A stretch of DNA of 64,000 bases from an uncultured Maribellus sp. (GTDB lineage: Bacteria; Bacteroidota; Bacteroidia; Bacteroidales; Prolixibacteraceae). Positions 17,234 through 25,684 of the stretch are shown piece after piece (the first letter of the stretch is position 1; the number at the start of each line of letters is the position of its first letter). The stretch covers positions 4,788 through 68,787 of the forward strand of contig CAYZBC010000001.1 of the NCBI GenBank assembly GCA_964476535.1, given 5' to 3'. The notes below the pieces were generated by a model. The model ran no database searches, was not told the origin of the DNA, and saw only the letters and a program-made list of their open reading frames with translations. The position numbers and the translations under genes were made by a program.

Positions 17234-18187
17234 TTAAAAGGCAGCCTTTATAATTTCTCCCACGTTATCCGAAATTCCGTACGTATAAATATGTAACGAC
17301 GGTGCGTTGTTGGCGACCAAATCTTTCGACTGAATAATGGCCCACTCGGTACCAACTCTCCGGGCTTCCTCGTTATTTTTGCATTTTGCCAGTTCATTTG
17401 CCAGTTCAAAAGGTAAATCGATACTAAATATTTTGGGTAGAACTGTGAGTTGGTTTTTTAAATTAATGGGTTTTATTCCTGGAATAATTGGGACAGTAAT
17501 TCCAATCTCGCGGCATTTTGCCACAAAATCGTAATATATTTTATTATCAAAAAACATTTGGGTTACAATGTAATCTGCACCCGCATCAACTTTTTGTTTT
17601 AAATTAGTTAAATCGAGCTCCTTATTTGGCGATTCAAAGTGTTTTTCAGGATAACCGGCCACGCCAATGCAGAAATCGAGCGGAGTACTATTTTTTAAGT
17701 CTGTCTCTAAATATTTACCTTTTTGCAGATCTTTAATTTGAGTTACCAATTCATTGGCGTAGGCATGTCCATTTGGATCGGGTTGAAAAACATGCTGGTT
17801 TTTTAAACCGTCGCCCCGCAATGCCAATATATTTTCAATACCTAAGAAATTCAAATCGATTAAAACATGTTCGGTTTCGCTTTTTGAAAAACCGCCACAT
17901 AGAATATGAGGAATAACAGGAATGCCATATTTGTGTTGAATGGCTGCTGCAATTGCAACAGCTCCCGGACGTTTGCGGACAGTTCGTTTAACAATACTTC
18001 CATCATGTAATTCCTTAAATTCCAGTTCGTCGCGATGGGTAGTAATGTTAATATATTTTGGGTCAAAATCAATCAAACTTTCAATTGTTTGGTACATTCT
18101 GCTCGTATTGTTCCCTTTTAAAGGGGGTAGAAGTTCAAACGAAAAAACCGTTTTTGATGACTTGTTTATGATATCGATTACCTTCAT
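17234..18187 (-). CDS. metF: 5,10-methylenetetrahydrofolate reductase
   Basis: FSFELLPP, PHILCGG, LALRGD, AGYPEKH, KVDAGADYIVTQMFFD motifs. Confidence 0.96.
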   Translation of the reverse strand: MKVIDIINKSSKTVFSFELLPPLKGNNTSRMYQTIESLIDFDPKYINITTHRDELEFKELHDGSIVKRTVRKRPGAVAIAAAIQHKYGIPVIPHILCGGFSKSETEHVLIDLNFLGIENILALRGDGLKNQHVFQPDPNGHAYANELVTQIKDLQKGKYLETDLKNSTPLDFCIGVAGYPEKHFESPNKELDLTNLKQKVDAGADYIVTQMFFDNKIYYDFVAKCREIGITVPIIPGIKPINLKNQLTVLPKIFSIDLPFELANELAKCKNNEEARRVGTEWAIIQSKDLVANNAPSLHIYTYGISDNVGEIIKAAF

Positions 18188-18192
18188 TTCTA

Positions 18193-18351
18193 TTATTTAA
18201 ATATGTTTTCAATTTTGTGCCCCGCTTTGTTTAGCTCTTTGTCAATTTCTTTTTCAACTGAATTGTTAAAATTAAAAACCATGTCGAGTACGAGCATCAC
18301 CAGCATTCCTAAAATGAAATAATATATGTTGCCTTTTCTGAAAATTTTCAT
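18193..18351 (-). CDS. Small (52 aa) predicted single-pass membrane protein, absent from the ORF track
   Basis: MKIFRKGNIYYFILGMLVMLVLDMVFNFNNSVEKEIDKELNKAGHKIENIFK. Basic N-terminus, TM segment, charged tail; stop is 5 nt before the metF ATG. Confidence 0.6.
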   Translation of the reverse strand: MKIFRKGNIYYFILGMLVMLVLDMVFNFNNSVEKEIDKELNKAGHKIENIFK

Positions 18352-18554
18352 CTGTTTATAATTGTGTGTTTTTTATCGGAAACAGATGTATCTCGCTTAT
18401 AACCATCCGCCTGTGTGTAAAATTTTTACATGCTCGTTTCATAAGATTATAATTGTTTGTCTTATAGTATCATATGTAACTCACTATAATCATTCTTCTC
18501 CCGATTAAAATGCGGGACAAGTCGTTTACAAGAATTTTTACATGCTTGTTTCAT
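18352..18554 (-). repeat. Tandem pair (A 18554-18443, B 18442-18352) of the start-codon-associated repeat
   Basis: ATGAAAC(A/G)AGCATGTAAAAATT is 21/22 identical between copies; shared GAG(T/A)TACAT and ACAATTATAA; homologous to 12597-12772. Confidence 0.85.
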
Positions 18555-18788: not shown

Positions 18789-21700
18789 TTACTTATAATT
18801 CAGATTGGTGGGCAGAAATTTCTCCACAAATGCAACCGTTTTTCCTTTTCGTTTTGCATAATCTTCAACCTGATCCTTGCCAATTTTTTCTAAACTGAAG
18901 TACCTCGATTCGGGATGTACAAAAAATTCTCCTGAAACCGATGCATTTGGATACATGGCAAAATGTTCGGTCAATGTAATTCCAACGTCTTCTGCTTTTA
19001 ATAATTTGAAGAGATTTTCTTTTTCTGAATGTTCGGGGCACGCTGGATAACCTAGTGCCGGGCGAATTCCCTGGTATTTAATTTTGAGTGTTTCGTCCAA
19101 CGAAAGATCTTCATTTGGTGCGTATCCCCAGTAATCTTTTCGAACCTGCAGGTGAAGTAATTCCGCGAAAGCTTCACTCAAACGGTCGGCAAGTGCTTCC
19201 AGCATAATTGCTTTGTAATCGTTGTTTTCTGCGCGATACTGGTCTTTCCATTTTTCTATGCCAATTCCTCCGGTTGTAGCAAAACCGCCACAGTAATCTA
19301 TTTTACCCCATTCAATTGGTGCAACAAAATCGGAAAGGCAGAAGTTTGAAATTCCCTCCTTTTTCTTTTCCTGCTGACGAATGTGATAAAACCGACCAAT
19401 CTCATTTTGTCGTGTTTCATTTTCGTACATCACCACATCATCGCCATCGGCATTAGCAGGCCAGATTCCAAATACTGCATTGGCCTGCAGCATTTTCTTT
19501 TCGATTATTTCATCCAAAAATTCGTTGGCTTCGACGTATAGTTTTTTTGCAGCGTCGCCTTGTTTCTCGTCGTTAAAAATTTGTGGGAAATGCCCTTTTA
19601 AACCCCAGGTTATAAAAAAGAATGTCCAGTCGATGTATTTACGTAATTCTTCCAGTGGAAAATCAATAAGCTGTTTTACTCCAATAAAATTTGGTTTGTA
19701 AATGGGCGTATTATTCCAGTCTATTTTAAATTTATTTCTTTGGGCTTGCTCTAAAGTCAAATATTTTTTAGGTTTTCGATTCCCTTGAAATTTTCGAATC
19801 TCAGCATAATCATTTTTAACCGAATCAAGGTATTTTTGATTTTTTGCGATGAGGTTTGAAACCACATTTACTGCCAACGACGCATCTTTTACATGAATTA
19901 CGGGGGAAGAATATTCTTGTTCAATTTTAACAGCCGTATGAATTTTTGATGTTGTTGCCCCACCAATTAAAATGGGAATATTCAGTCCGCGACGCTCCAT
20001 TTCTTTCGCAACGTCAACCATAATTTCCAGCGATGGAGTAATCAAACCACTCAATCCAACTACATCCACGTTTTCTTTGATGGCAGTATCAATTATTTTT
20101 TCGGTGGGAACCATAACTCCTAAATCGATAATTTCGTAATTGTTACAAGCTAAAACAACGCCCACAATATTTTTTCCAATGTCGTGAACATCGCCTTTTA
20201 CCGTGGCCATCAATACTTTTTTCGCAGACGATACTGTATTGTATTTTGCTTTGTCGGCATCAATGAATGGAAGTAAAAAAGCCACCGCCTTTTTCATTAC
20301 ACGCGCCGATTTTATTACCTGTGGAAGGAACATTTTACCGGCTCCAAACAATCCACCAACTACATTCATCCCATCCATTAACGGACCTTCGATAATATCT
20401 AATGCCAGTTTATATTTTTTTACAGCTTCTGCCATATCTTCATCAATAAACTCGGGAAAACCTTTAACCAAAGCGTGTTGAATACGTTTTTCAAGGGGAA
20501 GTTCACGCCATTCGTTTTTACGCTCCACTTTTTTCCCATCCGATTTTACATTTTCAGCAAACTCGAGCATTTTCTCCGTTGCGTCAATTTTTCGGTTAAG
20601 AATTAAATCTTCTGTTTTTTCCAAAAGGTCTTTCGGGATTTCATCATAAATCTGAAGCATTCCAGGATTTACAATTCCCATGTCGAGTCCGGCTTTTATA
20701 GCATGAAAAAGAAATACAGAATGCATGGCCTCACGAACTGTATTGTTGCCCCGAAAAGAAAAAGAAATGTTGCTTATTCCACCGCTGGTTTTAGCATGAG
20801 GAAGATTTTCTTTTATCCATCGCACCGAATCAATAAAATCGATACCATAATTGCTATGTTCTTCCATTCCGGTACCGAGGATTAAAACGTTAGGGTCGAA
20901 AATAATATCTTGCGGAGGGAAGTTGACCTGTTCAGTAAGAATTTTATATGCCCGGCTACAAATCTCTTTGCGGCGCTCCAAATTATCGGCTTGCCCTACT
21001 TCGTCAAAAGCCATTACAACTACGGCTGCGCCAAAACGTTTTATCACTTTTGCCTGATGAATAAAACTCTCTTCACCCTCTTTTAAACTGATGGAATTTA
21101 CAATCGCTTTTCCCTGTAAACATTTTAATCCGGCTTCAATTACTTTCCACTTCGAAGAGTCGATCATTACCGGAAGTTTGGCAATGTCGGGTTCAGCCAT
21201 TAACATGTTCAGGAATTGTACCATCTCTTTTTCGGCATCCAACATTGCATCGTCCAGATTTACATCGATAATCTGTGCACCATCTTCAACCTGTGCTCGT
21301 GCGATTGAAAGTGCTTCTTCGTATTTTTCTTCGCGAATTAAGCGTGCAAATTTCCTTGACCCGGAAACATTGCACCGTTCACCAATATTTACGAAGTTGG
21401 TTTCTTCAGTTAAAGTAACAGGCTCCAGACCACTAAATTTTGTATTTGAATCAGCCTTATTTATTTGATGCGGTTTTGCTTTCTCTGCAATTTTTACAAA
21501 TTCACGAATGTGTGCCGGAGTAGTTCCGCAGCAACCACCAATTATATTTACAAAATTGTTGTCGAGATAATCTTGCAGATAACCGGTCATTATTTCCGGT
21601 GTTTCGTCGTATTCGCCAAACTGATTTGGCAAACCTGCATTTGGATGAGCGCTGATATGGAATGGTGCTTTTCGTGAAAGTTCTTTTACGTAGGGACGTA

Positions 21701-22454
21701 AATCGGACGCACCCAGTGAACAATTTAAACCAATACTTAGCAAGTCGACATGTGAAACAGAATTTAAAAAAGCTTCCAGTGTTTGTCCCGAAAGTGTTCT
21801 TCCGCTGGCATCGGTTATTGTTCCCGAAACCATAAGTGGAAGTTTAATGCTGCGTGCTTCCAATGCTTCCTCAACGGCAAAAATAGCTGCCTTGCCATTT
21901 AAGGTATCGAAAATAGTTTCAATAATAAGCAAATCAACACCGCCGTCTAAAAGTCCTTCAACTTGCTCGCGGTACGAAGTTTTTACTTCATCGAAAGTTA
22001 CTGCGCGATAACCAGGGTCGTTTACATCGGGCGAAAGTGAAAGTGTTTTATTTGTTGGCCCAAGTGAGCCCGCAACAAAACGAGGTTTCGCTGGATTTTG
22101 GGCAGTGAATTTATCCGCTACTTTTTTAGCAATCTCAGCTGAAGTTTTGTTTAATTCGTAAACAAATTCTTCGGTGCCATAATCGGCTTGCGAAATGGAG
22201 GTGGCATTAAAAGTGTTTGTTAAAAGAATGTCAGCCCCAGCCTCCAAATATTTGGTATGAATTTCGATAATAATATCAGGATTGGTAATTGATAAAATAT
22301 CGTTATTTCCTTTTAGGTCATGCGGAAAATCCTTAAACCGTTCTCCGTGGTACTCCGCCTGGGTTAATTTATATTCTTGAATTAAAGAACCCATTGCCCC
22401 GTCCATAACAAGCACGCGGGTAAGGAGTTCGTTGCGTATATCTTTTTTAATCAT
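18789..22454 (-). CDS. metH: Cobalamin-dependent methionine synthase
   Basis: DGAMGS, GLNC, GGCCGT Zn ligands, pterin domain IGERCNV, DVHDIG B12-binding motif, C-terminal activation domain ([10 protein letters not shown]). Confidence 0.98.
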
Positions 22455-22483: not shown

Positions 22484-22561
22484 TTCTGTGCATTCTCTGT
22501 GTCTTCTGCAATTAAAAATATAACCACAAAGTTGCACAAAGGATTCACAAAGTTAACAAAG
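22484..22561. repeat. Imperfect inverted array of CACA(A/G)AG heptamers between UPF0280 and metH
   Basis: CACAAAG at 22525, 22535, 22546 and AACAAAG at 22555; complementary TTCTGTG/CTCTGTG at 22484 and 22495. Confidence 0.7.
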
Positions 22562-22565
22562 AAGT

Positions 22566-23318
22566 TTACTTCAAAATTCTCATCTCATAATCTCCCCGAA
22601 TTGCAATCTTATCTTCACAAATAATTAAAAGCGAAAGAATTTCTGGATATTTTTCCGATTGTTTAATCACTTTCTCAACATCGTTTGGCGATTTTACTTT
22701 GTTCCCGAAGGCGGTTGCAAAAGCGTCGGCCAATAAAATATCCTCACAAACAACTACAACTGCATCCGCTTTTCCGTAACTTAGCGAAGGTCCAACTGTA
22801 CCAGCCGAAGTACAAATTCCAAGTTTCTTCTTATCAGCAGGAATCACCAATCCAATTCGTTCCGACAAAATAGATTCTCCAGCAAAAACGGAAAACACCA
22901 AATCATCTTTTAAAAGAACAAAAATATCACCACCGTTCTCTATAACCAATTCTTTAACCGAAAAGTTCTGAATAATTTCTTTTCCCACTTCCCGGGCAAA
23001 TAATCCTGCAACCGCCGACATAGGTCCAATCCCCGCATTTTCGGCTGCGGCTGCCATTTCAATTGCTTCTAAAGGTGCAAAGCCAGAGGATTGAAAAGGT
23101 TTTAGGCTTTTTTTAAAGAACGGTTCTACTTTAATGTATTCATCGAATCTGTTGCGTAAACTTTTTATTTTCGCAAGTGCAAGTTCTTTTATTTCGGGTC
23201 GAAATGAAACCGTGTCAATGCCAATCCATAAATCGGTTTCCAGATAACTTATTTCAAAGCCTGTAAAACGTTCAGTGTTAAATTGGGTTCGATATGTTCT
23301 TTCTTCAAATAAATTCAT
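22566..23318 (-). CDS. UPF0280/COG2122 (ApbE-like) protein, homologue of the sulfide-assimilation protein MA1715
   Basis: GPMSAVAG, ENGGDI, GICTSAGTVGPSLSYGKADAV, LADAFATA motifs; lies next to the COG1900 and NIL-ferredoxin genes. Confidence 0.88.
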   Translation of the reverse strand: MNLFEERTYRTQFNTERFTGFEISYLETDLWIGIDTVSFRPEIKELALAKIKSLRNRFDEYIKVEPFFKKSLKPFQSSGFAPLEAIEMAAAAENAGIGPMSAVAGLFAREVGKEIIQNFSVKELVIENGGDIFVLLKDDLVFSVFAGESILSERIGLVIPADKKKLGICTSAGTVGPSLSYGKADAVVVVCEDILLADAFATAFGNKVKSPNDVEKVIKQSEKYPEILSLLIICEDKIAIRGDYEMRILK

Positions 23319-23385
23319 CTTTATACTAAATGGTATTATACCGAAAGGTATAAAATCAGTTTAAAAATTTAGATAGCTTCATGAC

Positions 23386-23507
23386 GGGAAACTCTAAAAA
23401 TAGGAAAATTCAAGGCGTAAGTAAATTTAAACACCGGAGTTTACTTTTGTAAATGAGGATTTTAAATTTACGAAACAACGCAGAAGCTTTCATTTTTAGA
23501 GCTTACC
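23386..23507. repeat. About 120-bp nested palindromic (MITE/REP-like) element
   Basis: Nested inverted repeats CTCTAAAAAT/ATTTTTAGAG (23392/23492), GCGT/ACGC, GTAAATTTAAA/TTTAAATTTAC (23421/23461), TTTAC-TTTT-GTAAA (23440-23453). Confidence 0.75.
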
Positions 23508-23913
23508 TAAAATCAATTTCAAACAAATTTAAAGGGCAGGCAGGAATACACAATTCACAAACTACACATTTGTCTTTGTCGAATTCCAGTTTCCAGGTCT
23601 CTTTGTTCATTGTTAATGAACCGGCAAAACATACGGCGGTACAATTCCCGCAATCAATACATTTTTCTTCATTTAAATGAATTCGTTTATCTAAGGGTTC
23701 ACAAGTAATCTGATTCTTCTGAAGGTACTTAACCCCGTTTTCAATGTTATCTTTTTTACCCTGGAGTTCAAGAAGCAGGCTACCTCGTTTTCCTGGGTAA
23801 ACTTCCGCTTTCAAAATATTTATGCGGATATCGTAATCTTTTACCAAATGGTAACTAAACGCTTTATCACCTCTATCGGGCGGGAAATTTAAGATGTATC
23901 TTTTTTTAATCAT
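23503..23913 (-). CDS. NIL domain plus 2x[4Fe-4S] ferredoxin (MA1822-like partner of homocysteine biosynthesis)
   Basis: INIL motif in an ACT-like N-domain; CIDCGNCTAVC and CVVCELCIPACP. Confidence 0.88.
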   Translation of the reverse strand: MIKKRYILNFPPDRGDKAFSYHLVKDYDIRINILKAEVYPGKRGSLLLELQGKKDNIENGVKYLQKNQITCEPLDKRIHLNEEKCIDCGNCTAVCFAGSLTMNKETWKLEFDKDKCVVCELCIPACPLNLFEIDFR

Positions 23914-25069
23914 TGTCGGCCTCCGTTTCTTTTAAACTTTTTAATGAGGTGTTTTGTGGAAACATTTGAACAGGTTTACTAATTTCAAAATTTCCCGACT
24001 GCAACCATTCTTTTAATTCGTTGGCAATCTTTCTGGCTTTCGAAAGGCTGGCAACTGGCGCAGTACGAATTTTCTTTCCATTCACTTTAATAAAACCCGA
24101 TTGAAGTTCTTTATATGAAACCTGTCCTAACTTTGGTGTTCCATTTGTTCCGTAATCGAGTACCGAAGTTTCAATCTGACTGTTATTTATAGAAACTCTT
24201 TTTGCTATTTCAACATCTAGAATTGGGATTGGGATTCCGATTCCCACAAACATACTTACGCCATATTTTTCGAAATAAGCTGCCTGAATATAATCTGCCG
24301 ACATTTCTTTTAAATTCCCAATAACAGCAATTGTAGCTGCGTTTGTAACCGGAACACCAAGTTCGTTTTTTGGCTTTGTTGTGTGGAATTGAGTACCCGG
24401 CCAAACTACAAAACCTTGTGTGCCACCCAGGAAAATACGTGTTCCCAAACCAATTGTTTTGAATTCGGGGTCGTTTAACAATGGGCTTAACTCACCGGAG
24501 GTAGAATAGGTTGCATTTCGCAAATTTGGGAGTAAAGTCCCCATGTACGTGTGAATCATTTTTTTAGTTGAATTCACGGCAACATTATAATTCTGATAGG
24601 CATTCCGCGGATTAAAAAGTGTAAATTCGTTTATCGTGTTTATATTAATTTTAGTGCGAATATGCTTGCGTGGATAACAATCGGTTCCTTTTCCCCATGC
24701 TTCCAGAATAACATCTTTCCCTTCCAGTAAATCCTGAATAACGTGTGCACCACCGTATTTCGGATTCTCAGGATCGCATGCTGTTGCTCCAATATAAGAA
24801 TCAACGGCTGCCAATCCCTCGTAACATGGTACGCCGTTTAATCTTATTTTTTCCATTCGAATGGGTGGGTTGGGATGACCAAAATTGATAATTGCACCGG
24901 ACGAACACATGGCACCAAAAGTTGCGGTAGTAACCACATCCACCTTTTCAACAATTTCTTCCGGCGATACGAGTAGCGCCATTTTCGAAACTTCCTCGGC
25001 GGTAAGTATTACTGCTTTACCCGATTTCAATTTCTGGTTAATTTCTTCGTAGGTTTTTATTTTTGACAT
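23906..25069 (-). CDS. L-aspartate semialdehyde sulfurtransferase (COG1900/DUF39, MA1821-like homocysteine biosynthesis protein), without CBS domains
   Basis: VDVVTTATFGAMCSSG, GLAAVDSYIGAT, YGGAHVI, GTDCYPR, FNPRNAYQNY, GELSPLLNDP, GTRIFLGG motifs. Confidence 0.9.
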   Translation of the reverse strand: MSKIKTYEEINQKLKSGKAVILTAEEVSKMALLVSPEEIVEKVDVVTTATFGAMCSSGAIINFGHPNPPIRMEKIRLNGVPCYEGLAAVDSYIGATACDPENPKYGGAHVIQDLLEGKDVILEAWGKGTDCYPRKHIRTKININTINEFTLFNPRNAYQNYNVAVNSTKKMIHTYMGTLLPNLRNATYSTSGELSPLLNDPEFKTIGLGTRIFLGGTQGFVVWPGTQFHTTKPKNELGVPVTNAATIAVIGNLKEMSADYIQAAYFEKYGVSMFVGIGIPIPILDVEIAKRVSINNSQIETSVLDYGTNGTPKLGQVSYKELQSGFIKVNGKKIRTAPVASLSKARKIANELKEWLQSGNFEISKPVQMFPQNTSLKSLKETEADND

Positions 25070-25184: not shown

Positions 25185-25280
25185 TTACATTTTAAAAAGC
25201 GGTAAAAACCGCCAGTGCATACACATATTTGCCCCATGCATATAACTTACTAAAAATAATCTGTACAGTTGTTTTTTCAT
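25185..25280 (-). CDS. Putative Met/Cys-rich leader peptide (31 aa)
   Basis: MKKQLYRLFLVSYMHGANMCMHWRFLPLFKM. Starts about 13 nt after the riboswitch P1 and overlaps a terminator-like hairpin. Confidence 0.5.
   Translation of the reverse strand: MKKQLYRLFLVSYMHGANMCMHWRFLPLFKM
25194..25213 (-). terminator. Attenuator-like terminator in the methionine operon leader
   Basis: Minus strand GGCGGT-TTTT-ACCGCT then TTTT; short 6-bp stem. Confidence 0.45.
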
Positions 25281-25292
25281 GATTGTGTTCAA

Positions 25293-25393
25293 ATTATAAT
25301 TCCGTTTCCGGCCGGGTATTGGCACCTTTCCCTTTTGTCCCGGTTGGTTGCCAGAGCTTCTCAGAGCCCGCTCTCTTCACTCTTCTATATAAT
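25293..25393 (-). ncRNA. SAM-I (S-box) riboswitch
   Basis: P1 ATTAT/ATAAT; kink-turn region GAGAG-CGGG-CTCTGAGAAG; GGCAACC...AGGTGCCAA core; pseudoknot CGGG/CCCG (compensatory relative to canonical CUGG/CCAG); short P4 CCG-GAAA-CGG. Lies upstream of methionine genes. Confidence 0.92.
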
Positions 25394-25518
25394 CAAACAC
25401 TCTTTAGAGAAAGAATATTTGATACGCTTCAAATTTAATCGAAAATGCTTAATTTCAAATATTTTTAGGTCAGTACTTTTAAAACGTTAAGATTCATTTA
25501 TAATTTCAATAATTTTGC

Positions 25519-25609: not shown

Positions 25610-25684
<75 letters not shown>

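Follow-up and report, generated by a model that had tools for sequence, protein, structure and literature searches.

The 64,000-nucleotide (nt) stretch of an uncultured Maribellus sp. analysed here (contig CAYZBC010000001.1 of assembly GCA_964476535.1; family Prolixibacteraceae), referred to below as the window, carries a string of methionine genes on its minus strand, spanning 16.7-25.4 kb. It comprises an S-adenosylmethionine (SAM) riboswitch of the SAM-I type, followed in order by genes for a COG1900a/HcyBio protein, a NIL-domain ferredoxin (NIL-Fd), a UPF0280/COG2122 protein, the methionine synthase MetH and the methylenetetrahydrofolate reductase MetF. This gene string, in a Draconibacterium-like genome of the marine-sediment type, is very probably a functional, SAM-repressed methionine operon of the Prolixibacteraceae, which runs parallel to the MetA route and is old and vertically inherited. 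Because of the operon context and published genetics, the first three genes are best read as encoding functions of the MA1821, MA1822 and MA1715 type, that is, the bacterial form of the known route from aspartate semialdehyde and sulfide to homocysteine (L-ASST, the L-aspartate semialdehyde sulfurtransferase). The pathway itself is known and already named in Pfam, and as such there is very little new here beyond its extension to a Bacteroidota family in which it is not discussed in the literature searched.

Gene content and predicted pathway

An earlier reading of the window, made from the sequence only, had assigned the first three proteins to the families of the methanogen homocysteine enzymes, and profile searches bear out all three assignments with e-values at which chance is no issue. 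The 387 amino acid product of the first gene (23906..25069, minus strand) matches PF01837 (HcyBio; residues 19-363; e-value: 6.9e-147) over the full length of the profile (positions 1-349 of 349). It retains the MCSSG motif at residues 54-58 (Cys55) and the DCYP motif at residues 130-133 (Cys131), as the sequence-only reading had stated, and both cysteines are invariant among ten order-level homologs. The same reading had reported the absence of CBS domains, and no CBS match was found on this protein, which stops 24 residues past the HcyBio domain. All 89 bacterial homologs compared are approximately 380-390 amino acids in length, suggesting that the C-terminal CBS pair marks the archaeal form only. 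A PDB sequence search with the HcyBio protein returned no real match and did not turn up any solved COG1900 domain structure. The second gene (23503..23913, minus strand), the open reading frame (ORF) of which shares an 8-nt overlap with that of HcyBio, encodes a 136 amino acid protein with a NIL domain (PF09383; e-value: 5e-13), matches to Fer4 families and two CxxCxxCxxxC motifs (cysteines 85, 88, 91 and 95, and 116, 119, 122 and 126), typical of a ferredoxin with two [4Fe-4S] clusters.

The third gene (22566..23318, minus strand) codes for a 250 amino acid ApbE-like protein, for which a Pfam search returned no family match, while the NF003323 model identifies it as a UPF0280/COG2122 member (e-value: 2.6e-69) and also finds matches in Methanosarcina acetivorans and Methanocaldococcus jannaschii. 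The protein retains the invariant motif 169-CTSAGTVGPSLSYG-182, the residues of which are conserved in 73-76 of 76 module-linked homologs across phyla. It also matches PDB entry 2O34 (e-value: 4e-27), in which the motif is conserved and which we take to be a Desulfovibrio vulgaris protein. Downstream of these three genes are located metH (18789..22454, minus strand), encoding a cobalamin-dependent methionine synthase with five domains (NF007024; Bitscore: 1986), and metF (17234..18187, minus strand; PF02219; e-value: 4.6e-64), after which a GNAT acetyltransferase gene follows. The riboswitch aptamer (25291..25395, minus strand; RF00162; Bitscore: 61.6 against a gathering score of 44.4) covers the full length of its model (positions 1-108). 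The order of SAM-I, the three module genes, metH and metF is as first described.

The L-ASST of M. acetivorans is made up of MA1821, a COG1900a-CBS protein in which Cys54 is essential and Cys131 contributes, and of the NIL-ferredoxin MA1822, and feedback by SAM and methionine is presumed to act through their CBS and NIL domains (PMC12068725). Methionine prototrophy of D. vulgaris depends on each of three genes (DUF39, NIL/ferredoxin and COG2122) and does not proceed by way of homoserine, while the Dehalococcoides operon DET0921-DET0919 has been predicted to serve the same route (PMC5764234). By homology and gene context, the HcyBio and NIL-Fd proteins of the window would exchange the oxygen in the aldehyde group of L-aspartate semialdehyde for sulfur, with Cys55 as the predicted essential residue and with sulfide as the sulfur source, probably by way of a protein-bound persulfide. 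Electrons from the ferredoxin would then reduce the product to homocysteine, such that homoserine is bypassed, and the UPF0280/COG2122 protein may assist the sulfur-handling step. The homocysteine would be methylated by MetH with methyl-tetrahydrofolate supplied by MetF. Aspartate semialdehyde would be supplied through asd, the gene for which lies in another part of the genome, and sulfide would have to be obtained from the surroundings or from organic sulfur. Feedback by SAM would act at the messenger RNA level through the SAM-I aptamer, as opposed to the CBS domains of the enzyme in archaea.

The genome (5.66 Mb in 550 contigs; 97.1% complete) encodes a fused aspartokinase-homoserine dehydrogenase in addition to asd. 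Searches of the genome at this completeness found no MetE (PF01717), leaving MetH as the sole methionine synthase detected, and no NIR_SIR-type sulfite reductase (PF01077), suggesting that reduced sulfur probably must be taken up. No MetX (TIGR01392) was found in the same searches. An acetyl-type MetA is encoded on contig C12 (NF047918; Bitscore: 479, above the cut-off), directly downstream of a gene for the O-acetylhomoserine sulfhydrylase MetY, which is represented by a fragment (TIGR01326; e-value: 1e-142). A contig break divides the metY-metA pair into parts on C376 (4444-4806) and C12 (1-1957), metY being cut at the contig start. Given the presence of both enzymes, the module represents a second, parallel route and no replacement. 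The methanogen-type homocysteine route envisaged in the sequence-only reading thus fits the protein families, the operon and the published genetics, but the idea that it substitutes for the classical enzymes fails.

Three of the spacers between the genes are long, namely 184 nt between NIL-Fd and UPF0280 (38-400 nt across relatives), 111 nt between UPF0280 and metH, and 601 nt between metH and metF, as against approximately 80-230 nt for the last of these in relatives. Repeats ending in ATGAAA on the minus strand and a palindrome of about 120 nt occupy these spacers (18346-18554, 22484-22561 and 23386-23507), the length of which varies greatly from relative to relative and is much smaller there. 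The metH-metF spacer contains short copies of the direct repeats D1 and D4 (18346..18554), each ending in TTTCAT on the forward strand, while the palindrome between NIL-Fd and UPF0280 (23386..23507) is formed by the inverted repeat I10 with arms at 23386-23401 and 23492-23507. No ORF is interrupted by any of them, and both the repeats and the palindrome are insertions outside the pathway. In a Draconibacterium metagenome-assembled genome (MAG; locus L030, 5140-5184, minus strand), the stretch separating UPF0280 from metH contains a borderline Rfam match to the small RNA Acido-Lenti-1 (40.2 bits against a threshold of 37), which may be one of the inserted repeats. A scan of 16.5-25.8 kb for terminators and promoters performed no better on the window than on shuffled sequence, with Bacteroidota promoters lying outside the models of the scan, and it found no terminator-like sites on the minus strand in the intergenic spacers.

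Several points weigh against a methionine operon of this kind. No characterization of the module in Bacteroidota or Prolixibacteraceae came up in the literature search, nor did any biochemical or genetic experiment on a Bacteroidota member. The UPF0280 protein scores 233 bits with the NCBIfam PRK04334/UPF0280 model, below its equivalog cut-off of 271 bits. The inserted repeats in the long spacers mean that co-transcription as far as metF is assumed, and MetA and MetY are additionally present, such that the contribution of the module in this organism is a presumed one. Furthermore, PF01837 also takes in enzymes with other substrates, such as the coenzyme M (CoM) synthase MMP16. HcyBio may accordingly act on another aldehyde to form another thiol, with a merely regulatory or coincidental link to the methionine genes, and a degree of promiscuity is suggested by the partial compensation for CoM synthase loss by L-ASST in M. 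acetivorans (PMC12068725). We consider this quite improbable, however, as the window protein scores only 133 bits with the MMP16 model (TIGR03287), far under the cut-off of 363.95 bits, a Fer4 search of the 387 amino acid protein gave no match, such that the inserted ferredoxin domain is missing, and the COG1900a-specific cysteine pair is placed as in MA1821. The linkage of HcyBio to NIL-Fd and UPF0280, often to metH or metF, and to a SAM riboswitch across phyla, together with the relatives described below that have this route alone, likewise argues for homocysteine as the product.

Distribution and inheritance of the module

The HcyBio genes most similar to that of the window (87-94% identity) are found in the same context in Draconibacterium MAGs and in D. 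mangrovi GM2-18, followed by those of Mariniphaga anaerophila DSM 26910, Tangfeifania and other Prolixibacteraceae, while the proteins of the module share 86-96% identity with those of congeners. PF01837 is present in 114 of 200 other Prolixibacteraceae genomes, covering 23 of the 36 genera and 14 of the 15 congeners. It was found in 10/200 other genomes of the order, all from different families, and in 0/400 other genomes of a phylum-wide sample, only seven of which are from the same order. The sequence-only reading had named, as an outcome that would count against it, a module widespread, vertically inherited and already characterized in Bacteroidota; the first two properties apply within the family, but they do not extend to the phylum sample, and the third found no backing in the literature searched. 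Of the 200 family genomes, 179 encode MetA, and at least 13 of the 21 genomes without it carry HcyBio, eight of these 13 being 94-100% complete. The module therefore looks like the only homocysteine route in some relatives, and MetA-less Prolixibacteraceae should not be labelled methionine auxotrophs in metabolic reconstruction.

Comparison of 89 loci from Bacteroidota, Spirochaetota, Bacillota and Fidelibacterota shows the HcyBio/NIL-Fd/UPF0280 tandem in nearly all of them, with metH and/or metF following the three genes in Prolixibacteraceae, Odoribacteraceae, several Spirochaetota and several Bacillota. The recurrence of this layout under a SAM-I riboswitch in Spirochaetota and Bacillota shows that it is no invention of the Bacteroidota. 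In the Fidelibacterota loci L064, L067 and L079, HcyBio is directly followed by UPF0280 without an adjacent NIL-Fd gene, while L026, L040, L043, L095 and L096 contain HcyBio and NIL-Fd without an adjacent UPF0280 gene.

A quick maximum-likelihood tree of HcyBio (89 rows, unrooted, no archaeal rows) places the window protein within a Prolixibacteraceae clade (16 rows; Shimodaira-Hasegawa-like approximate likelihood ratio test, SH-aLRT: 99), which is sister to a clade of gut and rumen Bacteroidales (27 rows together; SH-aLRT: 99). Two Bacteroidota copies, L097 and L021 (the latter from genome G420), fall inside a Bacillota group (support: 100). Forcing all 51 Bacteroidota rows into one clade is rejected by the approximately unbiased (AU) test (p = 0.0001), whereas a clade of 49 of the 51 rows, with the exclusion of L097 and L021 chosen after the tree was known, is not rejected (p = 0.615), the constrained tree being slightly better than the free one. 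The UPF0280 tree mirrors that of HcyBio, including the two Bacillota-like copies, suggesting that the cassette moves as a unit, and the nesting of L097 and L021 in both trees indicates that transfer of the whole module does occur. The trees point to at least one old entry into, or an origin in, the Bacteroidales, with subsequent descent and many losses, and, in other parts of the Bacteroidota, to two or more separate transfers. The phylogeny proposed as a check by the sequence-only reading thus places the window copy with the Prolixibacteraceae among bacterial sequences.

That reading had further suggested horizontal transfer of the module and adaptation to sulfidic habitats. A recently acquired island, received from a methanogen or another strict anaerobe and placed upstream of a native metH in such a habitat, would be in keeping with the rarity of the module outside the family (0/400 in the phylum, 10/200 in the order), with the rejected monophyly of all Bacteroidota copies, with the Bacillota-like position of L097 and L021, and with the fact that the riboswitch of the window is the only SAM-I found in the genome. 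It is nevertheless highly improbable, since the operon occurs in nearly all congeners and most genera of the family, in the same context at high identity in relatives, and shows no GC anomaly (0.35-0.41 across the operon, the same as in its flanks), and since 49 of the 51 Bacteroidota copies fit one clade and there are no archaeal sequences among the 80 closest HcyBio loci. A divergently oriented transfer RNA (tRNA) gene (25610-25683, plus strand) is located upstream of the riboswitch, as it is in at least five relatives (L035, L036, L134, L136 and L145); its being common to relatives marks this side as stable synteny rather than an insertion edge. Recent horizontal transfer into this particular genome was rejected on account of the distribution in the family, the GC content shared with the flanks and the 49-copy clade.

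Losses within the family include one in which UPF0280 has been left behind. A search with NF003323 detected UPF0280 in 128 of the 200 family genomes, compared to 114 with HcyBio, with the excess confined to three genera. In all twelve of the orphan loci fetched (L114, L115 and L119-L128, from G614, G607, G644, G669, G689, G705, G623, G652, G675, G709, G766 and G732), the UPF0280 gene occupies its usual slot immediately upstream of metH (and metF), and both HcyBio and NIL-Fd are missing. The orphan ORFs are intact and under purifying selection (dN/dS: 0.10-0.28; 0.13-0.19 in unsaturated pairs); among the corresponding MetH values those involving L122, a truncated and misaligned fragment, were disregarded. 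Residues of the invariant motif are lost in most of the orphans, namely C169 in 8/12, S171 in 10/12, S178 in 12/12 and S180 in 11/12. This points to a role of the motif in the COG1900 partnership and to some other reason for which the orphan protein is retained. The motif C-x-S-x-G-x2-G-x-S-x-S-x-G may thus be needed only when UPF0280 works with COG1900, and after the loss of HcyBio and NIL-Fd the protein may have another, metH-linked role. In the UPF0280 tree, all orphans group in a single clade whose sister consists of copies from complete operons in the same genus, and as such they represent one historical event without replication; repeated independent loss of HcyBio and NIL-Fd, which would have provided replicate evidence for the decay of the motif, was rejected on this ground. 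If confirmed, this lineage represents a natural experiment linking the motif of an uncharacterized COG2122 protein to its COG1900 partnership.

The loss of HcyBio and NIL-Fd in one lineage, the presence of the classical route and the repeats inserted in all three long spacers could also be taken to mean that the module is a redundant relic which contributes nothing, with MetA and MetY doing everything, but this is most improbable given that all ORFs are intact with their catalytic cysteines and invariant motifs, that the proteins share 86-96% identity with those of congeners, that the riboswitch and leader are conserved, and that UPF0280, having lost its motif where HcyBio was lost, keeps it here.

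The SAM-I leader and its mini-gene

The aptamer upstream of HcyBio is the single RF00162 match found in the genome (150 of 384 candidates scored). Thirteen of 20 family loci, and loci of several other lineages, have a SAM-I riboswitch upstream of HcyBio; in five family loci that lack HcyBio, none was found at the gathering score. In Wukongibacter sp. M2B1 (Bacillota; locus L086, 5572-5902), a tandem pair of SAM-I aptamers (87 and 92 bits) precedes the same cassette.

Between the aptamer and HcyBio is located a short ORF (25185..25280, minus strand), the translation of which reads MKKQLYRLFLVSYMHGANMCMHWRFLPLFKM. Its ATG (25280) is found 11 nt beyond the aptamer, its conserved part comprises codons 1-21 and closes with N-M-C-M (consecutive Met-Cys-Met codons at 25226-25218), and the ORF ends with a TAA codon at 25185. 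A small hairpin (GGCGGU-UUUU-ACCGCU; 25198..25213, minus strand) begins 4 nt past the Met-Cys-Met codons and is followed by UUUUU in this genome. An alignment of the leaders of relatives shows that a short ORF directly behind the aptamer is conserved (L030, L033, L035-L037, L039, L042, L024, L136, L139, L142, L144, L148 and L149). In nine loci of the Draconibacterium/Tangfeifania type it has exactly 21 codons up to the invariant Met-Cys-Met, the codons ending in N-M-C-M, and in eight relatives the hairpin GCGGTTTTAACCGC is conserved 6 nt past this triplet; over the loci listed above, the ending reads (N/S)-M-C-M. The stop codon has no fixed position, as it follows Met-Cys-Met immediately, falls within the loop of the hairpin or lies further downstream. 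More distant Prolixibacteraceae encode related ORFs ending in FLSFMHFANGCMC, YFLSFMYFSNMCMC and LSFMHFSNMCMR, the variants at the ORF end being NMCMR, NSCMC and NGCMC, i.e. N(M/S/G)CM(C/R). Members of the gut and rumen sister clade, as well as L081, contain otherwise unrelated ORFs ending in MRMRCMR, MDMRCMR or MPMCMR. The ORF starts approximately 3-27 nt past the SAM-I aptamer in all twelve loci checked for both elements. The Bacillota and Spirochaetota loci compared yielded no comparable ORF. Conservation of the peptide extends beyond the Met and Cys codons, and the synonymous differences observed at conserved residues argue for translation of the mini-gene.

The segment at 25232-25190 folds with an energy of -10.1 kcal/mol, the hairpin energies are unremarkable, and the whole leader has a fold z-score of -1.4, which is uninformative. 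No conserved terminator/antiterminator pair was found in the leader, in which one small hairpin is conserved and no terminator was called. The U-run behind the hairpin occurs in this genome but is absent in relatives, making the hairpin at most a putative terminator.

In Bacteroidota, translation starts on unstructured, A/U-rich leaders and not at Shine-Dalgarno sites. It is a real possibility, albeit somewhat short of probable, that the SAM-I aptamer gates the translation of the Met/Cys-codon mini-gene rather than a canonical terminator, with the ribosome reporting the charging of Met-tRNA, such that the mini-gene would be the expression platform of the riboswitch. Prolixibacteraceae and their gut and rumen sister clade would then share a composite leader, in which the aptamer controls a mini-gene start codon some 3-27 nt behind its P1 stem. 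A ribosome on the NMCM or MRMRCMR codons would report the charging of Met-tRNA, and perhaps of Cys-tRNA, with the hairpin surrounding the stop codon, and one leader would thereby integrate the supply of SAM and of methionine. Of this proposal and the one made above for the UPF0280 motif, the latter is the weaker. The literature search found no paper on such a Met/Cys-codon leader, nor on a SAM riboswitch combined with a leader peptide in Bacteroidetes. If confirmed, the arrangement could help to explain how riboswitches are coupled to expression in a phylum whose translation initiation is not based on Shine-Dalgarno sites.

Comparison with known systems

The L-ASST of M. acetivorans shares with the Maribellus module its three protein families, the NIL domain with two [4Fe-4S] motifs and the placement of the conserved cysteines (55 and 131 here; 54 and 131 in MA1821). 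Both systems coexist with an O-acetylhomoserine route and are associated with feedback by SAM and methionine. The catalytic subunit encoded in the window, however, lacks the CBS pair, SAM being sensed by an RNA aptamer instead. Furthermore, the COG2122 gene is part of the same operon here, whereas MA1715 is presumably located apart from MA1821-22, and the bacterial operon is joined to metH and metF. The bacterial version of the pathway is also found in D. vulgaris Miyazaki, where all three of its genes (DvMF_1464, DvMF_0262 and DvMF_0044) are required (PMC5764234). Judging by their locus numbers, the D. vulgaris genes are scattered and there is no classical route, while in Maribellus sp. they form one riboswitch-controlled cassette alongside MetA and MetY.

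The mini-gene resembles the trpL and hisL attenuators in that a short ORF carries its regulatory codons at the 3′ end and a small hairpin, within or beside which the stop codon falls, comes immediately after it. It differs in having Met and Cys codons, and only two or three of them, in the conservation of the peptide outside these codons, and in that no conserved terminator/antiterminator pair was found. The composite leader proposed here would find its closest precedent in the mgtA leader of Salmonella, which combines a Mg2+ riboswitch with the proline-codon ORF mgtL (PMC6460261). In the window the ligand is SAM and the codons are those for Met and Cys, the ORF is located just after the aptamer and not inside it, and no alternative hairpins or terminator could be made out. 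Common to both is the pairing, in one RNA, of an aptamer with a short ORF for a second signal.

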